Source of the DNA: Methanosarcinaceae archaeon
Lineage (GTDB): Archaea; Halobacteriota; Methanosarcinia; Methanosarcinales; Methanosarcinaceae
NCBI GenBank assembly: GCA_030609665.1
Contig: JAUWBW010000001.1
Location: 1-27,228, forward strand
DNA: 27,228 bases
Reading direction: 5' to 3'
Part shown: in pieces, positions 1,040 to 11,369 of the stretch
Layout of the letters: the number at the start of each line of letters is the position of its first letter
Numbering within the stretch: the first letter of the stretch is position 1
Program-made: the position numbers and the translations under genes
The notes under the pieces: model-generated
The model's database searches: none
The model's input: only the letters and a program-made list of their open reading frames with translations
What the model was told of the DNA's origin: nothing

Positions 1040-1545
1040 TGTTGGGCATGGTCGGATGCGTAATATATATGTCAACATATTGTACAATCTTTTTTTGTTA
1101 GTAATTCTGGACTCTTGCAGTAAGTGAACATAAAATCCATCTGGACACCCCTAAAAAAGTTGGTTCACAATATCCGAAAATGCTTGAACCTTGGGGAGTT
1201 TATCTTTGAATCTTGACAGTACTTGATATTTCCATGTTTTTCGCATGGACTTAAAATGAATAAACTTTTGATGAATTAATTTACCATATTTATCAAATCT
1301 GCTTTCCGTTAAGAGTATATGGAGATGAGGATAAAAGCCCATATCTTTGGAAAATGGATGTATGATAACAATAACACCTGTGAGCAAACGACCATTTCTG
1401 TGCTTGTACGAAATAATGTCGTTAATTGCTACAATTGCTGCATCCATCAAAACCTTTAGTAAAAAACGATCTTGTTTAACAAACCCCCAAAGAACATCTG
1501 GAATTGTGAGGATCCAGAATGATGGTGAGCAACATTTTTGAGAGA
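1040..1545 (-). mobile_element. Degenerate IS91-family (HUH/Y2) transposase remnant
   Basis: The ORF at 1151..1450 carries GVIVIIHPFSKDMGFYPHLHILLT (HUH motif). Upstream, VAHHH and ILTIPDVLW lie in different frames. After the stop at 1151, GFYVH and IVQYVDIYITHPTMP (resembling the YxxRYxxHP catalytic-Tyr region) lie in shifted frames. Confidence 0.7.
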
Positions 1546-1641
1546 TTTAGCCCATTTTTCAGATATATTTATATATTATTATATGATAATTCTATTATAG
1601 AATTATAAAATTATGCAATAATATTATGAGTTGATTTTTAA

Positions 1642-1818
1642 ATGACTTCGATTGCGATAGACGAAGATGATAAACAGTACATAGAAAAACTTAGAAAGGA
1701 TGCACCCACTGGAAAGGTTCTAAATATTAAGCAAACAGCCCACTGCGTATTGGGGTTTATTAAAAAAAATGAAAACGAATATATGATATATATGAATAAT
1801 CAACGGAAAGATTTATGA
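1642..1818 (+). CDS. Small 58-aa protein, possibly ribbon-helix-helix-like (not in ORF track)
   Basis: Hand translation: MTSIAIDEDDKQYIEKLRKDAPTGKVLNIKQTAHCVLGFIKKNENEYMIYMNNQRKDL*. An SD-like GAGTTGA lies upstream and the stop is 3 nt before the next ORF's GTG. The N-terminal strand-helix pattern is RHH-like (inference). Confidence 0.5.
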   Translation: MTSIAIDEDDKQYIEKLRKDAPTGKVLNIKQTAHCVLGFIKKNENEYMIYMNNQRKDL

Positions 1819-1845
1819 GTAGTGATATCTACAAGGGGGGACAAG

Positions 1846-2247
1846 ATGAATTTTACGAACGAAAATGAATTCATAGAATTAAAAAAATCTATTATGGATA
1901 TTTCTAATGGATTATTAAATGATAATCGAAATATTCGTTTAGAGAACTTAAAAGTTCTAAGAAAGATTACCATTAAAATAGAATTGATGAATATCGCAAA
2001 AAAGTGGGACCATAGTGATATTATTCCGATTTTATACATATTGAGGAATTTGGTTAATGATTTATATATTAATCTTGGAACCGATTCTTCACATGATTTC
2101 CCTGCCGAAAGCATTTCAAATGGATATTGTGAAAACTTAGGAAAATTCATCAAATCGTCATTCAATAAAGATAGTGAATCTATTGAAGGATTATACGAGA
2201 CGATTAAGCAATATTATACCAACCTTATGTTAGTTGAATCCGAGTGA
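1846..2247 (+). CDS. Hypothetical alpha-helical protein
   Basis: Open frame 1822..2247. ATG at 1846 follows GGGGGG. The stop overlaps the next gene's GTG (GTGA at 2244-2247). No family recognised. Confidence 0.65.
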   Translation: MNFTNENEFIELKKSIMDISNGLLNDNRNIRLENLKVLRKITIKIELMNIAKKWDHSDIIPILYILRNLVNDLYINLGTDSSHDFPAESISNGYCENLGKFIKSSFNKDSESIEGLYETIKQYYTNLMLVESE

Positions 2248-2900
2248 TTTTTATGAAATTAAAATTAAATGAATCATTTAATAGTACTAAAAAGCGGGTT
2301 AATGAACTAAATAAAAGATCAAATGAATATTTTAGAGACCCTGGCTGTGTCAAGCAATGTACTAAAGCGCATCGAAGTGGCATTCTAAGTTCGCATTACA
2401 TTGATTTTGACAATATGACAATTGATCCCTTTAAAGCAGAGGATATCGTTCTTTTGTATTCTTATAAGATAAATGAAATTATTGAGAAACACCCCGTTGA
2501 TTTTTTGGCATTTATTGAAAAAGCAGATGGAGGAACTACCGGGACACTTAAAATGTCAATAGCAATCTCCATTAAAACCAAGATTCCAAACATTTCATTA
2601 AGAATGGGAAAAGAACTGGCACGTGAAAAATTGAAAATGCCTTATGACATGAACAGTCGGAAAGGTTTAAAGTATATTTTAATTACTGATCATATTTCAA
2701 GCGGGCAGGAAGTTTTGAAATCAATCAAAGTAATTGAAGAAAATGGGGGCAAGGTCACTGACTTAATAACTTATACATCAGAAAGTCATATTGATGTTGA
2801 AGAAATAGAAACCATTGGGATTAACTTTCACACCATTAAAACTGACTTAGACCTTAAAAGCGTAGGAATTTCCTTTGAACCAATTGCAATTGTAGCTTGA
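2244..2900 (+). CDS. Divergent type I phosphoribosyltransferase (PyrE/OPRT-like)
   Basis: SGILSSHYID resembles the OPRT SGxxSxYYID motif. YILITDHISSGQEV is a variant PRPP-binding loop, followed by IKVIEENGGKV. The start could be GTG 2244 or ATG 2253. Confidence 0.75.
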   Translation: MIFMKLKLNESFNSTKKRVNELNKRSNEYFRDPGCVKQCTKAHRSGILSSHYIDFDNMTIDPFKAEDIVLLYSYKINEIIEKHPVDFLAFIEKADGGTTGTLKMSIAISIKTKIPNISLRMGKELAREKLKMPYDMNSRKGLKYILITDHISSGQEVLKSIKVIEENGGKVTDLITYTSESHIDVEEIETIGINFHTIKTDLDLKSVGISFEPIAIVA

Positions 2901-2917
2901 AAAATGGGTAGGATGGA

Positions 2918-3613
2918 ATGGTTTTTCAAATAAATTTAGATTGGGTAGTTGAACTTACCCCTGATAATAAAGGAGAGCACACAATTAAGATTCATGTCAG
3001 TAACCCCTCTGATATGAATCCTGCAAAATCCAATTACTACCACATATTTTTAAATGAAATGAATGTTTCCACAAATTCAGCAAAAATGATTTTTAACAAT
3101 ACATCAATAGAACCCATTAAAGAGGACTATTTTCTTGAAGATAATCACATTAGAATTGATTTTGATAAATTTGATAAAGATTATAAGTTAGATTTTAGTT
3201 CCCGAAAATCGTTTGATTTAGAAATTAATTTCAGTCAACACCCGACAATAAAAAAACATCATGGAATTAAAGATGTAAATGTGGATTTTAGTACTCATTT
3301 AGATTCAGCTTCCTCTAAATTGACATTCATTTTACCACGGAGAAATAGGTTGTTAAAATTTTTCCGGCATAAAATATTGCAAAAAGATGATGAATATCCT
3401 TACACTATAATCCCATATAATGGTGAGCCTACAATTGAACCAGATGAAAAAGGATATCTAAAATTAATTTATACTTCTAGAAGCGACATAATAAGTCCAT
3501 TTGGATTTATGTTTCGTGAGTCAAATATAAGTACAATGTTTTATAGTTTTATTTCTGGGATTTCAATAGGATTAATAGCTAATTATCTTTTTGATTTATT
3601 GCGGGGAAAGTAA
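2918..3613 (+). CDS. Hypothetical protein with a C-terminal transmembrane anchor
   Basis: 231-aa ORF with an SD-like GGGTAGGA. The body is rich in beta-strand-like segments and the C-terminus is hydrophobic (MFYSFISGISIGLIANYLFDLL) followed by RGK. Confidence 0.7.
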   Translation: MVFQINLDWVVELTPDNKGEHTIKIHVSNPSDMNPAKSNYYHIFLNEMNVSTNSAKMIFNNTSIEPIKEDYFLEDNHIRIDFDKFDKDYKLDFSSRKSFDLEINFSQHPTIKKHHGIKDVNVDFSTHLDSASSKLTFILPRRNRLLKFFRHKILQKDDEYPYTIIPYNGEPTIEPDEKGYLKLIYTSRSDIISPFGFMFRESNISTMFYSFISGISIGLIANYLFDLLRGK

Positions 3614-3647
3614 CATTCATTTTTTCGAAGTTAAAATTGCATCCCAA

Positions 3648-3787
3648 GTCAGTGGAGCAACATAGAGTGACTCTCTTGTAATGGGATGAACCTACTCCGG
3701 CATTACTCCGGTTTTCAGGGAACCGTCAGCAATCCAGTTGAGCAATTCAAGAGCTCTTTTGAGATCATCGATCTTTTTTGCTTTTGC
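3648..3787 (-). pseudogene. Duplicated 3' fragment of the GH15 gene (direct repeat of 6070..6209)
   Basis: Manual alignment gives 127/140 identical nt with no gaps. A CAG-to-TAG nonsense change lies at 3692-3694. Confidence 0.9.
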
Positions 3788-5987: not shown

Positions 5988-7973
5988 TCATCCGGTTCCT
6001 GAAATATCCAGATCCGCTCTTTTTTCCACATATCTTGTGATCACGTCCACAAACTCTGCATGACTCCAGGTCAGTGGAGCAACAGAGAGTGACTCTCCTG
6101 TAATGGGATGAACCTGCTCCGGCATTACCCCGGTTTCCAGGGAGCAGTCAGCAACCCAGTTGATCAATTCAAGAGCTCTTTTCAGATCATTAATCTTTTT
6201 CGCTTTTGCTATGTACCACTTCGCAAGCCACAGAGTACATATCAGCCAGGGGTTTCCTGTGGCTTCGTTTGTCAGCCTGTGATAATTGTCATTCTCATAT
6301 CTCGCGATCCCACCTTTACCCCCAACCCAGAGTCGCTCTTCCACATTCTTCATTGTCCTGACCACACGCGGATCGTCAGCCGGGAGTACATCGAAATCAA
6401 AGATCCCATATACACTGCTGTCAACCGTCCTGTCGATCTTCTTTTGACTTATATCGCCTCCTTCATACTGTATGCTCCTCAGAAAAACGCCATTTTCATT
6501 GTCAAAGAGCTCATTTATGAGCACCTCTTTGAGATCATTATATCTGTTTCGGCACATCTCGCAGGTTATTTTATCACTTAATAGATCTCCAAGGTGCCTT
6601 GCCGAAACCAGCCCGGCGTAGACTGCTGATGTTGTAAAAGTAAAAATTCCCCTTCTCTCTTCCCACAGGTCATAACTTTCCACAGGAACCCCATTTGGGT
6701 AACGATAATCATTCATGAAAAATACTGCCTTCTTCACCAACGGCTCATAGAGTTCCTGAACAAACTCGATATCATTGGTTGCCAGATAATACTTCCAAAG
6801 AGCATAAAGTACCAACCCTGTCTCATCTTCCTGGATCGGAAGAGATGGTCTGCCATATTCGACCCAGGGGTGCCAGCTGCTCCCCAATGTCTTATCAGGA
6901 TTATACTTGTGGAGCATACATCCTGTCCACCAGAGCACATCCTTGCAAAATGTAAAGAATGGTTTCGCAAATTCAGGATATCCTGCATCTATCATAGCAA
7001 TGGCAACAAGAGCCCCATCCCTGGACCACATGTAACTGTACGTATCCTTGTTGAACTGCCTGTTGTCTGAATCATTTGCTGCAATGATGGCACCTCCTTT
7101 ATCCGTCTGGGTCTTTATGATCAACAGCGACCTTTTGTAGAGATTTACAAGTCCGGGGTCAAGGTTTGAAAGGTCGACAGTAGTTTGGCTGGCCCAGGAT
7201 CTCTGGGAAGCTTCAGTACCCTTTAATAGACTTTCAGGCCCCATGTCCATGACGCGATCATTTAGCTCATAGACATCATTGAAGTCTTTTCCTGTAGTCA
7301 TATAATAGTAAACGACCCTCGACGAGTTACCCGGGACTTGCAGGTGAACACCAACCGTTGAATCTATAGAACCCTGTGCCACCGGGTTTTTTGAAAGGAC
7401 CCCGTCTTCTGCATCCCTGAATGTCCCTTCGTAACCCTCGCCTTCTGACTGGCCAATGGCATAGTCGTCAATGTCACTGGTTATTCCCTCTTTCTTATTT
7501 GCTCTTAGTAGACCGATCAGGAAATACCTGGCTCTCTTGTAATGTATTATCACATTGTGATCCATCTGGTAAACTGCCGTATCCCCGATCCCATCGCCGT
7601 AAAGGTGGAAATCGTGGTTAAAGAATACACGGATCTCTCTTTTATCATTCCGGGTATTTCTTACAGTAATCCTTCTGAGAAATATGTTGGCCTCACAATC
7701 AACATTCTCCTCAAAGTTTAACTCAATACCAAGATCGCTGTTTATGGCCAGATTATCAGTTGCAAGCGTATCGTTCTTATAAGCAGGTCTCCTTTCCCAC
7801 TCCGATTCATTAACCCACGAAAGCCTGCCATCGGCATACACACCTATCTTCTGGGCGTGTCCGACCAGATGATTCTCCTGGCCAACATAGGGATAATAGA
7901 TATCCCGTACCTGAAACCATTTGTCGATATTGATCAACAAAGACTGATTACCCAGAGCAATATGTCGAGTCAT
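5988..7973 (-). CDS. Glycoside hydrolase family 15 (glucoamylase/trehalase-like)
   Basis: Y(M)WSRDG, IQEDETG, DLWEE (catalytic acid region), PEQV and LTWSHA. ATG at 7973 follows an AGGGGG SD; the ORF track's 8009 start overlaps the upstream gene. Confidence 0.9.
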   Translation of the reverse strand: MTRHIALGNQSLLINIDKWFQVRDIYYPYVGQENHLVGHAQKIGVYADGRLSWVNESEWERRPAYKNDTLATDNLAINSDLGIELNFEENVDCEANIFLRRITVRNTRNDKREIRVFFNHDFHLYGDGIGDTAVYQMDHNVIIHYKRARYFLIGLLRANKKEGITSDIDDYAIGQSEGEGYEGTFRDAEDGVLSKNPVAQGSIDSTVGVHLQVPGNSSRVVYYYMTTGKDFNDVYELNDRVMDMGPESLLKGTEASQRSWASQTTVDLSNLDPGLVNLYKRSLLIIKTQTDKGGAIIAANDSDNRQFNKDTYSYMWSRDGALVAIAMIDAGYPEFAKPFFTFCKDVLWWTGCMLHKYNPDKTLGSSWHPWVEYGRPSLPIQEDETGLVLYALWKYYLATNDIEFVQELYEPLVKKAVFFMNDYRYPNGVPVESYDLWEERRGIFTFTTSAVYAGLVSARHLGDLLSDKITCEMCRNRYNDLKEVLINELFDNENGVFLRSIQYEGGDISQKKIDRTVDSSVYGIFDFDVLPADDPRVVRTMKNVEERLWVGGKGGIARYENDNYHRLTNEATGNPWLICTLWLAKWYIAKAKKINDLKRALELINWVADCSLETGVMPEQVHPITGESLSVAPLTWSHAEFVDVITRYVEKRADLDISGTG

Positions 7974-9118: not shown

Positions 9119-10546
9119 TCAATGGAAATGTTCAAGACTATGATGATAATGTGCAACCGGCATCAGTGAATAGAATGCCCTTGTCACAACCTCGCTCAAT
9201 GACGGATGGATATCCATGCCACCCATGATGGGTTCTGCACTCTGCAGTGGAATGTACATCAGAGGAATGATCTGATGAATAAGGATCGAGGCATGTGGAC
9301 CTATTATATGTGCCCCAAAGATCTTGTAAGTATCCGATTCCACAATGACCTTTACAAAATAATCCTTTACATCCATTGCCTGTCCTTTGGCAGTGTCCTC
9401 ATATCGCTGGAAGCCTATGAGCACATTATCCTCCCCATACCTTCCAATGGCTTCCCTTTCCCTCAACTCCACGCTTGCAATTTCAGGATATGAAAAAACT
9501 GCATGCGGTACTGCATGATAATCTACCTTAACATTTTTCTTCAAGATCGCATTGTAGTAAACTATAGTTGATTCATAGTTTGCCACATGTTTGAAAAGAT
9601 ATTTCCCGTTGGCATCCCCAAATGCCCAGATGTTTGGCTGTGAAGTTTCAAGATATTCATTTGTCACGATCCAGCCCTTGCTATCAGTTTCTATATCTCC
9701 CTTTCCGGGATGCAGTATGTCTGAGTTTGACCCCCTTCCTGTAGCAATAAGAATTTTCTCTGCAACCACTTCGATCTCTTCTCCGCTATTCCTGTCCTTT
9801 GCAACAACCTTTTTCTTTCCATCATCGGTCATCCGGACCTCAATTACTTCATGATCCGTGATCAGGTTCAGATTCGGATATCCTGACATTACTTTCTTTG
9901 CCAGTTCTGAAACCTCCGGTTCCTCTTCAGGAATGAACTGGGGATTTCTCCCGATGATAGTTACGTCAGAACCCATTGCAGAAAAAAAATGACCATACTC
10001 TGCTGCTATGTAACCCCCGCCTATGATGGCAATACTTTCCGGGAGTTCTGTCATATCAAGTACAGTATCACTTGTGAGATATTGAATCTCATCTAATCCT
10101 TTTACAGGTGGTAATATGGTTTTTGAGCCCGTACATAAAAATATCATATTTGATATGATGGTCTCATTGCCCACCTTCAATGTATAAGGAGCAACAAATT
10201 CCGCCACTTCAGGATAGTAATCTACGTTCTCATTGCTGGAAAGTCCCTCACGGATCATATATATATCCTTTGATATGTGAGTTCTCATCCTATCCATTAC
10301 AGCCTTAAAACCAGTGTTCTTTATTTCCACATCAATGCCAAATTTCGATGCAGTCCCTATTTCCCTGATAAGTTCTGCAGGATAAAATAATAATTTGGAT
10401 GGTATGCATCCTCTTGTAAGGCATATCCCCCCGGGTTCGTCCTTATCGATAACTGCGATCTTTATATCAGGATTTGCGTTTATCATTGCCTCTACAATAA
10501 TCATTGCAGAACCGGTACCTACTACGATCAGATCGTAATCTTTCAA
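9119..10546 (-). CDS. Class I pyridine nucleotide-disulfide oxidoreductase (dihydrolipoamide dehydrogenase/mycothione reductase-like)
   Basis: VGTGS FAD motif, redox-active CLTRGC-IPSK, IIGGGYIAAE, AFGD and C-terminal HPSLSE. TTG start follows a GGGGTGA SD. Confidence 0.9.
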   Translation of the reverse strand: MKDYDLIVVGTGSAMIIVEAMINANPDIKIAVIDKDEPGGICLTRGCIPSKLLFYPAELIREIGTASKFGIDVEIKNTGFKAVMDRMRTHISKDIYMIREGLSSNENVDYYPEVAEFVAPYTLKVGNETIISNMIFLCTGSKTILPPVKGLDEIQYLTSDTVLDMTELPESIAIIGGGYIAAEYGHFFSAMGSDVTIIGRNPQFIPEEEPEVSELAKKVMSGYPNLNLITDHEVIEVRMTDDGKKKVVAKDRNSGEEIEVVAEKILIATGRGSNSDILHPGKGDIETDSKGWIVTNEYLETSQPNIWAFGDANGKYLFKHVANYESTIVYYNAILKKNVKVDYHAVPHAVFSYPEIASVELREREAIGRYGEDNVLIGFQRYEDTAKGQAMDVKDYFVKVIVESDTYKIFGAHIIGPHASILIHQIIPLMYIPLQSAEPIMGGMDIHPSLSEVVTRAFYSLMPVAHYHHSLEHFH

Positions 10547-10769
10547 CTGATCACCCCACTATTCCCAGTATGAAATTGACCTCACTGTTTTTAAGATTTT
10601 CTGTGAATATTATGATCAAGTGATCTTTGTCACAATGTGCATGGGTGTTCCACCGAAAACTCCAATAACACCTCTAAACCCCACCACAAACACCTATATA
10701 TGCCATGACAACATTCATTTTGATTAGTGGGTATTTCCTATAATCAGTGGGAGCAGGAAGTGATATCTT

Positions 10770-11369
10770 ATGGTATTGGGGACTCAAAGAGATTTGGAAA
10801 CAGGCACCTCTATCAAGGAAATTGAGAATGAGATGCGGGTCAGCGAGGTCATGACCAAAAAAGTGTTTGCTTTAGATGTAGGAGCGAACGCTGCCGAAAT
10901 TGCCGAGGAAATGACCAAAAACAATATTTCAAGTATTGTCGTCACAAAGAACGGCGATGCTGTAGGGATCATAACCGAGCGCGATATTGTCAGGAAAGTG
11001 GTGGCAGGGGAAAAAGAATCAGGCAAGATATCTGCCAGTGAGATCATGTCCTCCCCCCTTATGACAATAAGACCTTCAACTAACATAATAGACGCTGCTA
11101 GGATTATGCTCAAGCACGATATCCGTAGGCTTGTCATCAAAGTGAACGGCAGTCCTTCCGGGATTGTTACGGACAAGGACCTGCTCATGATAGCTCCCGG
11201 TCTTAACACCATTTTAGAAAGCCTTATTGAAATGAGCAATGAACAAAACATTCCACGAACGCCGGAACTCGAAAGGGGAATATGCGAATACTGCGGCGCG
11301 GCTGGTGAAAACGTCATGCTCGTAAATGGGTTGATGCTGTGTGAATCCTGTAAGGATTCAGAGAGTTAA
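10770..11369 (+). CDS. CBS-pair protein with a C-terminal Zn ribbon
   Basis: Two CBS motifs (VSEVMT...GIITERD; SEIMS...GIVTDKD) followed by CEYC-x14-CESC. Confidence 0.88.
   Translation: MVLGTQRDLETGTSIKEIENEMRVSEVMTKKVFALDVGANAAEIAEEMTKNNISSIVVTKNGDAVGIITERDIVRKVVAGEKESGKISASEIMSSPLMTIRPSTNIIDAARIMLKHDIRRLVIKVNGSPSGIVTDKDLLMIAPGLNTILESLIEMSNEQNIPRTPELERGICEYCGAAGENVMLVNGLMLCESCKDSES

Follow-up and report, generated by a model that had tools for sequence, protein, structure and literature searches.

The window analysed here is a stretch of 27,228 nt of the Methanosarcinaceae archaeon contig JAUWBW010000001.1 (assembly GCA_030609665.1, positions 1-27,228, forward strand). ORF calling on the window placed four intact ORFs, all in one orientation, between positions 1642 and 3613. 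We refer to this group as the cassette, and its genes and flanking features are the following.

1151-1450, minus strand: remnant of an IS91-family (Y2-type) transposase on the left flank (Pfam PF04986, Y2_Tnp)
1568-1641, plus strand: AT-rich putative promoter/operator, read from the sequence
1642-1818, plus strand: ORF1, 58 aa, regulator slot of the cassette
1846-2247, plus strand: ORF2, 133 aa, with an alternative GTG start at 1822
2253-2900, plus strand: ORF3 (PRTase), 215 aa, with an alternative GTG start at 2244
2918-3613, plus strand: ORF4, 231 aa
3614-3643, plus strand: junction where the cassette homology ends, about 10 nt of it matching the start of the lost PyrF-like gene
3644-3787, plus strand: duplicated fragment of 144 bp, a copy of the 3' end of a GH15 glucoamylase gene

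The cassette was identical in three independent read-set assemblies. The spacing given in a first-pass annotation of this DNA (3 nt, a GTGA overlap and 17 nt) was reproduced when the GTG starts were used, and gene calls on identical contigs preferred ATG 1846 for ORF2 and ATG 2253 for ORF3. Inspection of the sequence revealed plausible ribosome-binding sites for the window ORFs. When compared with a second archaeal genome, all four ORFs showed 45-65% amino-acid identity and the window genes had pN values (0.23-0.33) below pS (0.58-0.81), indicating purifying selection on all four. Since the ORFs are conserved with pN below pS, we consider all of them, including the 58-aa ORF1, to be the genuine, tightly packed genes that had been proposed. 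The GC content of the cassette was 0.302, versus 0.435 for positions 4185-27228. The claimed contrast with the surroundings thus holds, but the figure of 22-27% that accompanied it is somewhat below the 0.27-0.34 measured in 400-nt windows. This low GC and the absence of the cassette from the nine other genomes of the genus support the view that the unit is foreign.

The 99-aa ORF at 1151-1450 matched Y2_Tnp with an E value of 6.9e-6 over profile positions 1-66 of 183, in support of the IS91 remnant reported beside the cassette; elsewhere in the genome it had only short weak DNA matches. The duplication scar described on the right was also confirmed, positions 3644-3787 being 90% identical to positions 6066-6209 of the window, at the 3' end of the GH15 gene. 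Alignment by blastn matched window positions 1601-3634 with positions 9351-11363 of a related locus, L001, in which a decarboxylase gene begins at 11354. This fifth, PyrF-like gene has been lost from the window copy at the rearrangement junction. The homology with L001 starts upstream of ORF1, at 1601, and the upstream region is intact. This region contains a TATA-like TTTATATA at 1568-1575, and a ATAATATTAT element upstream of the cassette is common to the window and L001. Inverted repeats upstream of ORF1 that could form an operator were indistinguishable from chance in such AT-rich DNA, so that 1568-1641 is proposed only as a putative promoter/operator. An upstream Metallophos gene was considered as part of the cassette and rejected: the window and L001 proteins are unrelated despite their shared position, the L001 copy has host-like GC and lies inside another operon, and the gene tables examined for the other loci contained none.

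The full cassette comprises five genes encoding, in order, a small regulator, a helical protein, a PRTase, a tail-anchored beta-sandwich protein and a PyrF-like decarboxylase. The same order was found in about 17 independent archaeal and bacterial loci, a sample skewed to one subgroup because the search used the narrower TDHCTTG subset of PRTases, and the special PyrF-like decarboxylase was the last gene in 14 of the 17. The carriers were Methanosarcinales, Methanophagales, Thermodesulfobacteriota, Terriglobia, Desulfobacca and metagenomes. Start/stop overlaps between genes 2 and 3 and between genes 4 and 5 occurred in many loci. Profiles of ORF2, the PRTase and ORF4 each matched the same three of 284 genomes from the order of the host, which, with the recurring gene order, bears out the suggestion that the genes are inherited as a unit; the cassette was also present in two of a further 400 genomes drawn from the phylum. 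We conclude that the window region was acquired horizontally and represents a five-gene operon truncated at its 3' end, and that this operon moves horizontally between archaea and bacteria, often into defence islands. At L035 the special subfamily is replaced by a canonical type-2 OMP decarboxylase; together with L037, this locus suggests that partial gene sets can persist. In the order searched, damaged copies included, besides the window copy without gene 5, L001 with a frameshift in gene 4, a solo decarboxylase with a stop (G246) and a fragment only (G045). The idea of phage, plasmid or virus cargo gained no support, as the cassette was not found on sequenced plasmids or phages by tblastn or on IMG/VR contigs in two scans. 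As had been anticipated, no description of the cassette was found in Pfam, NCBIfam, PADLOC, PDB or the literature searched, and the operon is undescribed in these sources.

The first gene of the complete operon is a small, interchangeable DNA-binding protein, the slot being occupied in other loci by a small wHTH or MerR protein. ORF1 shares 45% identity with the product of the L001 first gene, a protein of 53 aa (pN 0.27, pS 0.81). The ribbon-helix-helix fold (CopG/Arc/MetJ) initially attributed to it gained no support, as no match was found in Pfam, NCBIfam, PDB profiles or Atlas, and ORF1 is a putative regulator by positional equivalence with the wHTH/MerR genes only.

ORF3 consists of a PRT domain only (215 aa), with no fused HTH or output domain. 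Its family profile matched orotate phosphoribosyltransferase (OPRT) structures in PDB, the best being human and bacterial OPRTs (E 7.9e-10), but ORF3 itself scored only 23.5 bits against TIGR00336 (cut-off 106.8) and 29.9 bits against NF010382 (cut-off 208). The description of ORF3 as PyrE-like is thus valid at the level of the superfamily and fails at that of the family. In the tree, the branch between the cassette PRTases and canonical PyrE was about 5 substitutions per site long, the SH-aLRT was 100 on both sides, and wider sampling left this split unchanged. A type I PRTase is recognised by four hydrophobic and two acidic residues followed by an xxTTGxT phosphate loop. The corresponding region of ORF3 is ILITDHISSGQE, and the clade motif is TDHxTTGxE. 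Thr replaces the first acidic residue, so that the canonical DD reads TD in the cassette PRTases; the second Asp remains, as does the S/T-S/T-Gly loop, and an extra His and Glu are invariant. This pattern was conserved in about 45 family representatives; at E < 1e-10 the family numbered roughly 100. Several OPRT enzyme features persist in the family as well: the basic hood residue, a lysine at the position of Y72/K73, a flexible loop that is basic (R117, K128), the Asp that binds ribose, and the phosphate loop. From these profile matches and the tree, ORF3 appears to be an OPRT-derived type I PRTase of a distinct clade. A housekeeping PyrE identity was rejected, given the scores below the family cut-offs, the separate clade and the canonical PyrE located elsewhere in the host genome (contig C140, 169 bits); this agrees with the early doubt about a housekeeping OPRT role, and annotation of ORF3 as 'orotate phosphoribosyltransferase' should be avoided. 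The sister clade, which is the nearest non-cassette one, includes a TIR-PRTase fusion, and the wider clade an Mrr_cat-PRTase adjoining a Shedu-type gene. The non-canonical superclade also holds non-catalytic sensors (TrmB-fused, GfcR-like); these TrmB-fused relatives, among them P0088, belong to a different branch from ORF3.

The decarboxylase encoded by the fifth gene scored 42 bits against the PyrF family model (cut-off 208) and carries an invariant YDHQKxGTDIP motif, with DHQKxGTD where PyrF has DxKxxD. Its best PDB match was the OMP decarboxylase (OMPDC) of M. thermautotrophicus (E 6e-14), with the phosphate-gripper and Asp/Lys residues aligned; equivalents of D20, K42, D70, D75, Q185 and R203 of that enzyme are retained in the subfamily, which shows 53% identity between archaea and bacteria. 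No copy of this decarboxylase was found in the genome of the window, whose assembly is 74% complete, and a housekeeping PyrF is present in most relatives. The remark that no pyrimidine-pathway genes lie nearby is correct for the window, because this copy has lost gene 5, but does not apply to the complete cassette, which has its own PyrF-like decarboxylase. Judging from their sequences, OPRT and OMPDC thus each appear to gain a distinct subfamily with systematically altered catalytic motifs.

The AlphaFold2 model of ORF2 (pLDDT 86.7, pTM 0.83) contains six helices, consistent with the helical protein first predicted. No meaningful match to this fold was obtained with Foldseek against PDB and AFDB (E >= 0.5), with VIA-align run wide or in an Atlas shape search, and searches by sequence gave no meaningful match either. 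A CheA-P1-like fold was considered and rejected, since its Z score of 7.0 (VIA) is below the meaningful level for helical bundles. The family is present in every full cassette and has a conserved NL(G/A)TD(S/A)SF loop. ORF2 is thus modelled as a six-helix bundle of a new family.

The AlphaFold2 model of ORF4 (pLDDT 79.6, pTM 0.75) shows a beta-sandwich over residues 1-201 followed by a C-terminal helix at 204-228. The proposed membrane anchor is in part upheld: this helix is probably a tail anchor and is TM-like in archaeal homologues (KD hydrophobicity 2.0-2.8), but its hydrophobicity is marginal in the window (1.53), as it also is in bacterial copies. Foldseek matched the model with ribophorin I (AFDB, E 7.7e-9, TM 0.54) and with the N-domain of M1 aminopeptidase (PDB, E 6e-6 to about 1e-5), and an Atlas feature search also listed Ribophorin_I. 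Like ribophorin I and DUF2207-type proteins, ORF4 is predicted to have a beta-sandwich and then a single C-terminal transmembrane helix; it differs from them in lacking sequence similarity (7-14% identity) and an oligosaccharyltransferase context, and the TM scores of only about 0.45-0.55 denote a resemblance at fold level only. A pore or effector found no support in the model, in which the ribophorin-like beta-sandwich bears just one tail helix. In place of the membrane effector initially envisaged, the beta-sandwich fold with its tail anchor suggests a scaffold.

Several of the homologous loci lie among genes for defence or conflict. The neighbours include McrBC, integrase, WYL, HerA-like and BrxD-like genes in Desulfobacca acetoxidans (L041), a type IIG restriction-modification gene (L039), methyltransferases and HNH (L045), AbiEii (L035) and PIN toxin-antitoxin pairs (L029 and L033), while L031 and L043 are surrounded by housekeeping genes. 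The PADLOC comparison suggested with the first-pass annotation was run with PADLOC-DB v2.0.0: no model matched any of the four window proteins or the L041 decarboxylase. NCBIfam 2026 antiphage models likewise gave zero matches for the window proteins, and no known defence system was recognised with either collection. The defence or conflict role proposed for the cassette finds some backing in the restriction, Abi and toxin-antitoxin genes around several loci, but gene context is all that supports it.

We tentatively read the complete operon as a repressor-controlled two-enzyme module that would work at the membrane to make a pyrimidine-type nucleotide of a non-canonical kind, with biological conflict as its probable use, a reading that we find plausible if a little short of probable. 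Protein 1 would hold the operon repressed. The PRTase would couple PRPP with a carboxylated pyrimidine-like base to give an OMP-like nucleotide, and from this the partner decarboxylase would produce a pyrimidine nucleoside 5'-monophosphate that is non-canonical or simply additional. Two further proteins, the helical one, whose translation is coupled to that of the PRTase, and the tail-anchored one, in turn coupled to the decarboxylase, would gate the enzyme pair or else assemble or tether it at the membrane. The product may serve in biological conflict, either as a nucleotide analogue directed against viruses or as a signal. A copy without the decarboxylase, such as that of the window, would probably be crippled or reliant on host PyrF. 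With regard to the 'nucleotide-consuming or -sensing' function first suggested, the obligate decarboxylase partner makes catalysis more likely than sensing alone. A conflict role for the product is suggested by how patchily the cassette is distributed, by its neighbours in defence islands and by the TIR fusion among the sister PRTases, an argument by association that draws on a handful of loci. The Thr in the PRPP motif and the DHQKxGTD of the decarboxylase mean that either enzyme could be inactive or perform other chemistry, and the frequent damage among copies in the order searched could mean a decaying selfish or costly element rather than one in use.

Concerning the window copy itself, it may be an inactive leftover of a degraded mobile island, useless to the cell, which we take as a serious possibility although distinctly short of probable. 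The deletion at the scar of a gene present in 14 of 17 loci, the transposase remnant and duplicated gene fragment on the flanks and the damage seen in related copies of the order all point in this direction, whereas the copy still has four unbroken ORFs preceded by plausible ribosome-binding sites, the upstream region is intact and homologous to that of L001, three independent read-set assemblies agree and host PyrF could stand in for gene 5. The window copy is thus truncated and possibly inactive. For the operon as a whole, we judge it rather unlikely that it is a metabolic accessory with no conflict role, that is, a mobile membrane-associated alternative UMP synthase or a device for salvage or detoxification of an orotate-like environmental base, with ORF2 and ORF4 merely assembling the enzymes near the membrane, where orotate is made or imported. 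Both enzymes keep most of the PyrE and PyrF substrate-binding residues, L035 has a canonical type-2 OMP decarboxylase and two loci have housekeeping neighbours; against this, carriers already own a canonical PyrE (169 bits) and most relatives a housekeeping PyrF, the cassette is very rare and patchy, the systematic motif changes (TDH...E; DHQKxGTD) speak against plain orotate-to-UMP chemistry, and restriction, Abi, toxin-antitoxin or integrase genes frequently adjoin. A module in which the PRTase-like protein is a non-catalytic sensor of PRPP, nucleotide or sugar phosphate controlling its partners, with the decarboxylase-like protein as ligand binder, is quite improbable: the OPRT-derived superclade does hold GfcR-type TrmB-HTH fusions and the PRPP-motif DD is TD, but the basic flexible loop and pyrophosphate-position lysine are kept, unlike in GfcR, ORF3 has no fused output domain, and the pairing is strict with a highly conserved OMPDC-like enzyme retaining its phosphate gripper and Asp/Lys network.

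Returning to the two-enzyme module, its boldest form would be a new immune or antagonistic system in which a derepressed, dedicated PyrE-like/PyrF-like pair, which two novel proteins would assemble at the membrane, makes a non-canonical pyrimidine nucleotide acting as viral poison or alarm signal. We consider this form doubtful. If true, archaea and bacteria would share a 'chemical defence' of a biosynthetic kind, derived from duplicated enzymes of the UMP pathway. Nucleotide-based immunity is known from viperins, CBASS and Thoeris, beside which a modified nucleotide as product would place a new biosynthetic logic. The system is directly testable, because the cultured Desulfobacca acetoxidans, with a complete genome, has an intact copy (CP002629.1, about 1,030,390-1,033,560), which encodes a MerR protein and proteins of 132, 221, 234 and 240 aa; G075 also carries an intact cassette. 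For the window itself the message is modest, its copy being truncated.

PyrE and PyrF, orotate phosphoribosyltransferase and OMP decarboxylase, are the last two enzymes of UMP synthesis and are fused as UMP synthase in eukaryotes. The cassette resembles them in that ORF3 appears OPRT-derived and gene 5 OMPDC-derived, and in that the pair travels together, like two consecutive pathway steps. It differs in that both enzymes are far below the family cut-offs with altered motifs (TDHxTTGxE; DHQKxGTD), the PRTase forms a separate clade (SH-aLRT 100), two unknown proteins and an own regulator are added, and the cassette has a low GC content, occurs rarely and patchily and is carried besides a housekeeping PyrE. 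ShosTA and PsyrTA consist of a PRTase toxin with a DprA-like antitoxin, and PRTase-type retrons of a reverse transcriptase and an ncRNA. Like them, the cassette is a small accessory operon, frequently located in defence islands, that encodes a protein of the type I PRTase fold; a published study documents PRTase domains in retron PRTase effectors and in ShosT/PsyrT-type systems (10.1101/2022.05.11.491447). The cassette, in contrast, has no reverse transcriptase, ncRNA or DprA-like antitoxin: no Pfam or PADLOC match to DprA or RT was found in any locus gene table, and PADLOC models of PRTase retrons and ShosTA/PsyrTA had no match among cassette proteins. Its partners are instead a PyrF-like enzyme, a helical protein and a tail-anchored beta-sandwich protein. 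GfcR, PurR and PyrR are PRTase-fold regulators. GfcR is a proven non-catalytic sugar-phosphate sensor (PMC10838023). As in these regulators, an OPRT- or PRT-derived domain has apparently been recruited outside housekeeping in the cassette, and TrmB-fused relatives fall in the same superclade. ORF3 nevertheless differs from them in having no fused DNA- or RNA-binding domain and retains a basic loop of catalytic type, absent from GfcR; DNA binding in the cassette falls to a separate, interchangeable first gene.

The first-pass annotation had placed four co-oriented open reading frames at 1642-3613, between an IS91-type remnant on the left and a duplicated fragment on the right, and had proposed a defence/conflict or nucleotide-sensing cassette. 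ORF listing, family matching and DNA comparison confirmed this layout:

1642-1818, + strand: ORF1, 58 aa (table-11 ORF listing)
1822-2247, + strand: ORF2 (ORF listing); ATG 1846 in gene calls, 133 aa
2244-2900, + strand: ORF3, the PRTase (ORF listing); ATG 2253 in gene calls, 215 aa
2918-3613, + strand: ORF4 (table-11 ORF listing)

The starts at ATG 1846 and ATG 2253 are those called on three short identical contigs assembled from other read sets, and a G-rich ribosome-binding site lies ahead of ATG 1846. The low GC noted in the first pass was recovered (0.302 for the cassette versus 0.435 for 4185-27228), but the contrast had been somewhat exaggerated. The GC3 of the cassette genes is 0.22-0.32, versus 0.46 in the neighbouring cyclase gene, and low GC persists from the left contig end up to about 4100. 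A 99-aa fragment that matches Y2 (IS91-type) transposases occupies the left flank; on the other side, 3644-3787 duplicates the 3' end of the GH15 gene (6066-6209) at 90% identity. A calcineurin-like phosphoesterase gene of low GC (0.325) at the contig edge (65-745, - strand) weakly matched NCBIfam models of antiphage phosphoesterases as well as the PADLOC candidate PDC-S10 (E 1.4e-4), and may be part of the same foreign island.

The same four genes were found in identical order in a 'Candidatus Methanoperedens' MAG (locus L001, genome G102). The proteins share 45-65% amino-acid identity with those of the window, window positions 1601-3634 are 67% identical at the DNA level, and for every cassette gene, including the 58-aa ORF1, pN (0.23-0.33) was well under pS (0.58-0.81). 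The four genes are real and belong together. When 284 genomes of the order were searched with separate family profiles for PRTase, ORF4 and ORF2, each matched exactly G000, G075 and G102. The cassette was present in 0 of 9 other genomes of the window genus, and the PRTase in only two more genomes among 400 sampled from the phylum. The PRTase family is bigger than word-based searches imply: an exhaustive profile search returned 107 cluster representatives at E < 1e-10, of which 37 reached E < 1e-30. Searches of plasmids, phages and IMG/VR contigs gave no match to the cassette, and a full-text literature search found no paper describing it. The operon is strictly co-inherited, horizontally mobile and undescribed.

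The complete cassette, as found elsewhere, has five genes whose order is fixed: first a small DNA-binding protein, then the ORF2 family, the PRTase and the ORF4 family, and finally an OMPdecase-family gene. The loci examined were archaeal (L029 in G075; L033, L038 and L073 in Methanophagales; L074 in G452), bacterial (L039, Thermodesulfobacteriota MAG; L040, Terriglobia MAG; L041, Desulfobacca acetoxidans) and metagenomic (L031, L035, L043, L045, L055, L057, L061, L063). The first slot is interchangeable: the window and L001 have a protein of 53-58 aa there, other archaea a wHTH protein and bacteria a MerR protein. Stop/start overlaps are frequent between genes 2 and 3 and between genes 4 and 5. 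Of about 17 independent loci with sufficient flanking sequence, 14 have a special decarboxylase subfamily next to the PRTase. The window does not, L035 has a canonical type-2 enzyme instead, and L037 has a solo PRTase. At L037 (6001-6705, Nanohaloarchaea MAG DAOVKX010000015.1) the family PRTase (TDH motif, 226 bits) stands without ORF2, ORF4 or decarboxylase partners. The PRTase of L055 (5950-6828) carries an extra C-terminal extension of ~80 aa, charged and helical-looking, and no separate ORF4 gene precedes the decarboxylase, so that L055 may represent a variant architecture. On a metagenomic fragment (L002), an HD-domain, dGTPase-like gene (1135-1533, - strand) is convergent with a shortened ORF4 homologue.

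Homology between the window and L001 stops at 3634, ~10 nt past the start of the L001 decarboxylase gene, and the duplicated GH15 fragment directly follows. The window cassette is a 3'-truncated copy. No copy of the decarboxylase subfamily was found elsewhere in the window's genome (74% complete). Among the 284 genomes, strong decarboxylase scores were confined to the two cassette carriers (384-388 bits) and to copies in G246 and G045, housekeeping PyrF scoring 80-100 bits. The G246 copy (L069, G246:C467) is solo with an internal TAA stop and the G045 copy (L070, G045:C23) is a C-terminal fragment, other cassette genes not being nearby in either case, which suggests repeated cassette decay in Methanosarcinales. 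The closest relative appears likewise damaged: in L001 (G102:C79) a frameshift within an A-rich run (11086-11107) splits the ORF4 homologue, which could be a pseudogene or an artefact of assembly.

Sequence profiles placed ORF3 in the OPRT branch of type I PRTases. It is not the housekeeping PyrE: the genome encodes a separate canonical PyrE (169 bits), and cassette PRTases and PyrE separate in a tree with full support. Fusions to TIR, Mrr_cat or TrmB-HTH domains occur among more distant relatives. With the tree rooted, the TIR fusions form the sister group of the cassette clade (SH-aLRT 92), and the TrmB (GfcR-like) fusions branch off more distantly. P0066 (L076, 104-1324; 406 aa) has an N-terminal TIR domain, and P0152 (338 aa) a Mrr_cat restriction-endonuclease domain, its gene adjoining an SduA_C (Shedu-type) gene; such fusions are candidate stand-alone conflict proteins.

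Several cassettes have defence-type neighbours. In D. acetoxidans the intact cassette comes after an integrase within a dense defence-type island (CP002629.1, 1,024,127-1,040,831). On one side of it is a McrBC-type system (AAA_5/McrB-McrC pair), and on the other are genes for a WYL-WCX regulator, an ARPP-1-domain protein, a PLD-like (ZacB/DrmC-like) protein, and BrxD-like and HerA/DUF87 ATPases; the island also has an HTH_17 gene with the tyrosine integrase. Cassettes adjoin a type IIG restriction-modification enzyme at L039, two methyltransferases, an HNH gene and an AAA_5 gene at L045, an AbiEii gene at L035, and PIN toxin-antitoxin pairs at L029 and L033. Neighbours at L031 and L043 are ordinary.

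ORF2 was modelled with confidence as a six-helix bundle (pLDDT 86.7), with the invariant Thr-Asp of its motif NL(G/A)TD(S/A)SF in the loop following helix 4; sequence and structure searches gave no meaningful match. The ORF4 model (pLDDT 79.6) is a beta-sandwich followed by a C-terminal helix of 25 residues, resembling ribophorin I and the N-domains of M1 aminopeptidases (TM about 0.45-0.55). Most archaeal homologues have a clearly hydrophobic tail; in the window copy and in bacterial ones the hydrophobicity of the tail is marginal. Across loci, ORF2 and ORF4 (about 17-30% identity) evolve much faster than the PRTase (about 35%) and the decarboxylase (53%, archaeal versus bacterial copies).

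We propose that the PRTase and then the decarboxylase probably act on an orotate-like base to yield a pyrimidine-type nucleotide, that ORF2 and ORF4 probably assemble or tether the two enzymes at the membrane, and that ORF1 probably represses the operon. Gene context and the TIR-fused sister group suggest, tentatively, a role in conflict. Independently of function, there is an appreciable minority chance that the window copy is an inactive relic. A purely metabolic role is a rival to the conflict reading and somewhat less likely. A role as a sensor is improbable; it is kept alive by GfcR, a documented non-catalytic sensor derived from OPRT (PMC10838023). 

Both enzymes of the cassette have altered motifs. 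Usual type I PRTases carry two acidic residues followed by an xxTTGxT phosphate loop, replaced in the cassette family by the signature (I/L/V)3-T-D-H-x-(S/T)-(S/T)-G-x-E. The family retains the hood Arg/Lys, a Lys at the pyrophosphate-contact position, the basic loop (R117, K128), the ribose Asp and the phosphate loop, which makes catalysis plausible. The decarboxylase, with conserved blocks GIIPACDV, YDHQKxGTDIP, GGEMTH, GIGKGQGGD and IVGR, scored 42 bits against the PyrF model (cut-off 208) and forms a distinct subfamily. Aligned to M. thermautotrophicus OMPDC, it retains the phosphate gripper and Asp/Lys residues, whereas the DxK(72)xxD loop is remodelled.
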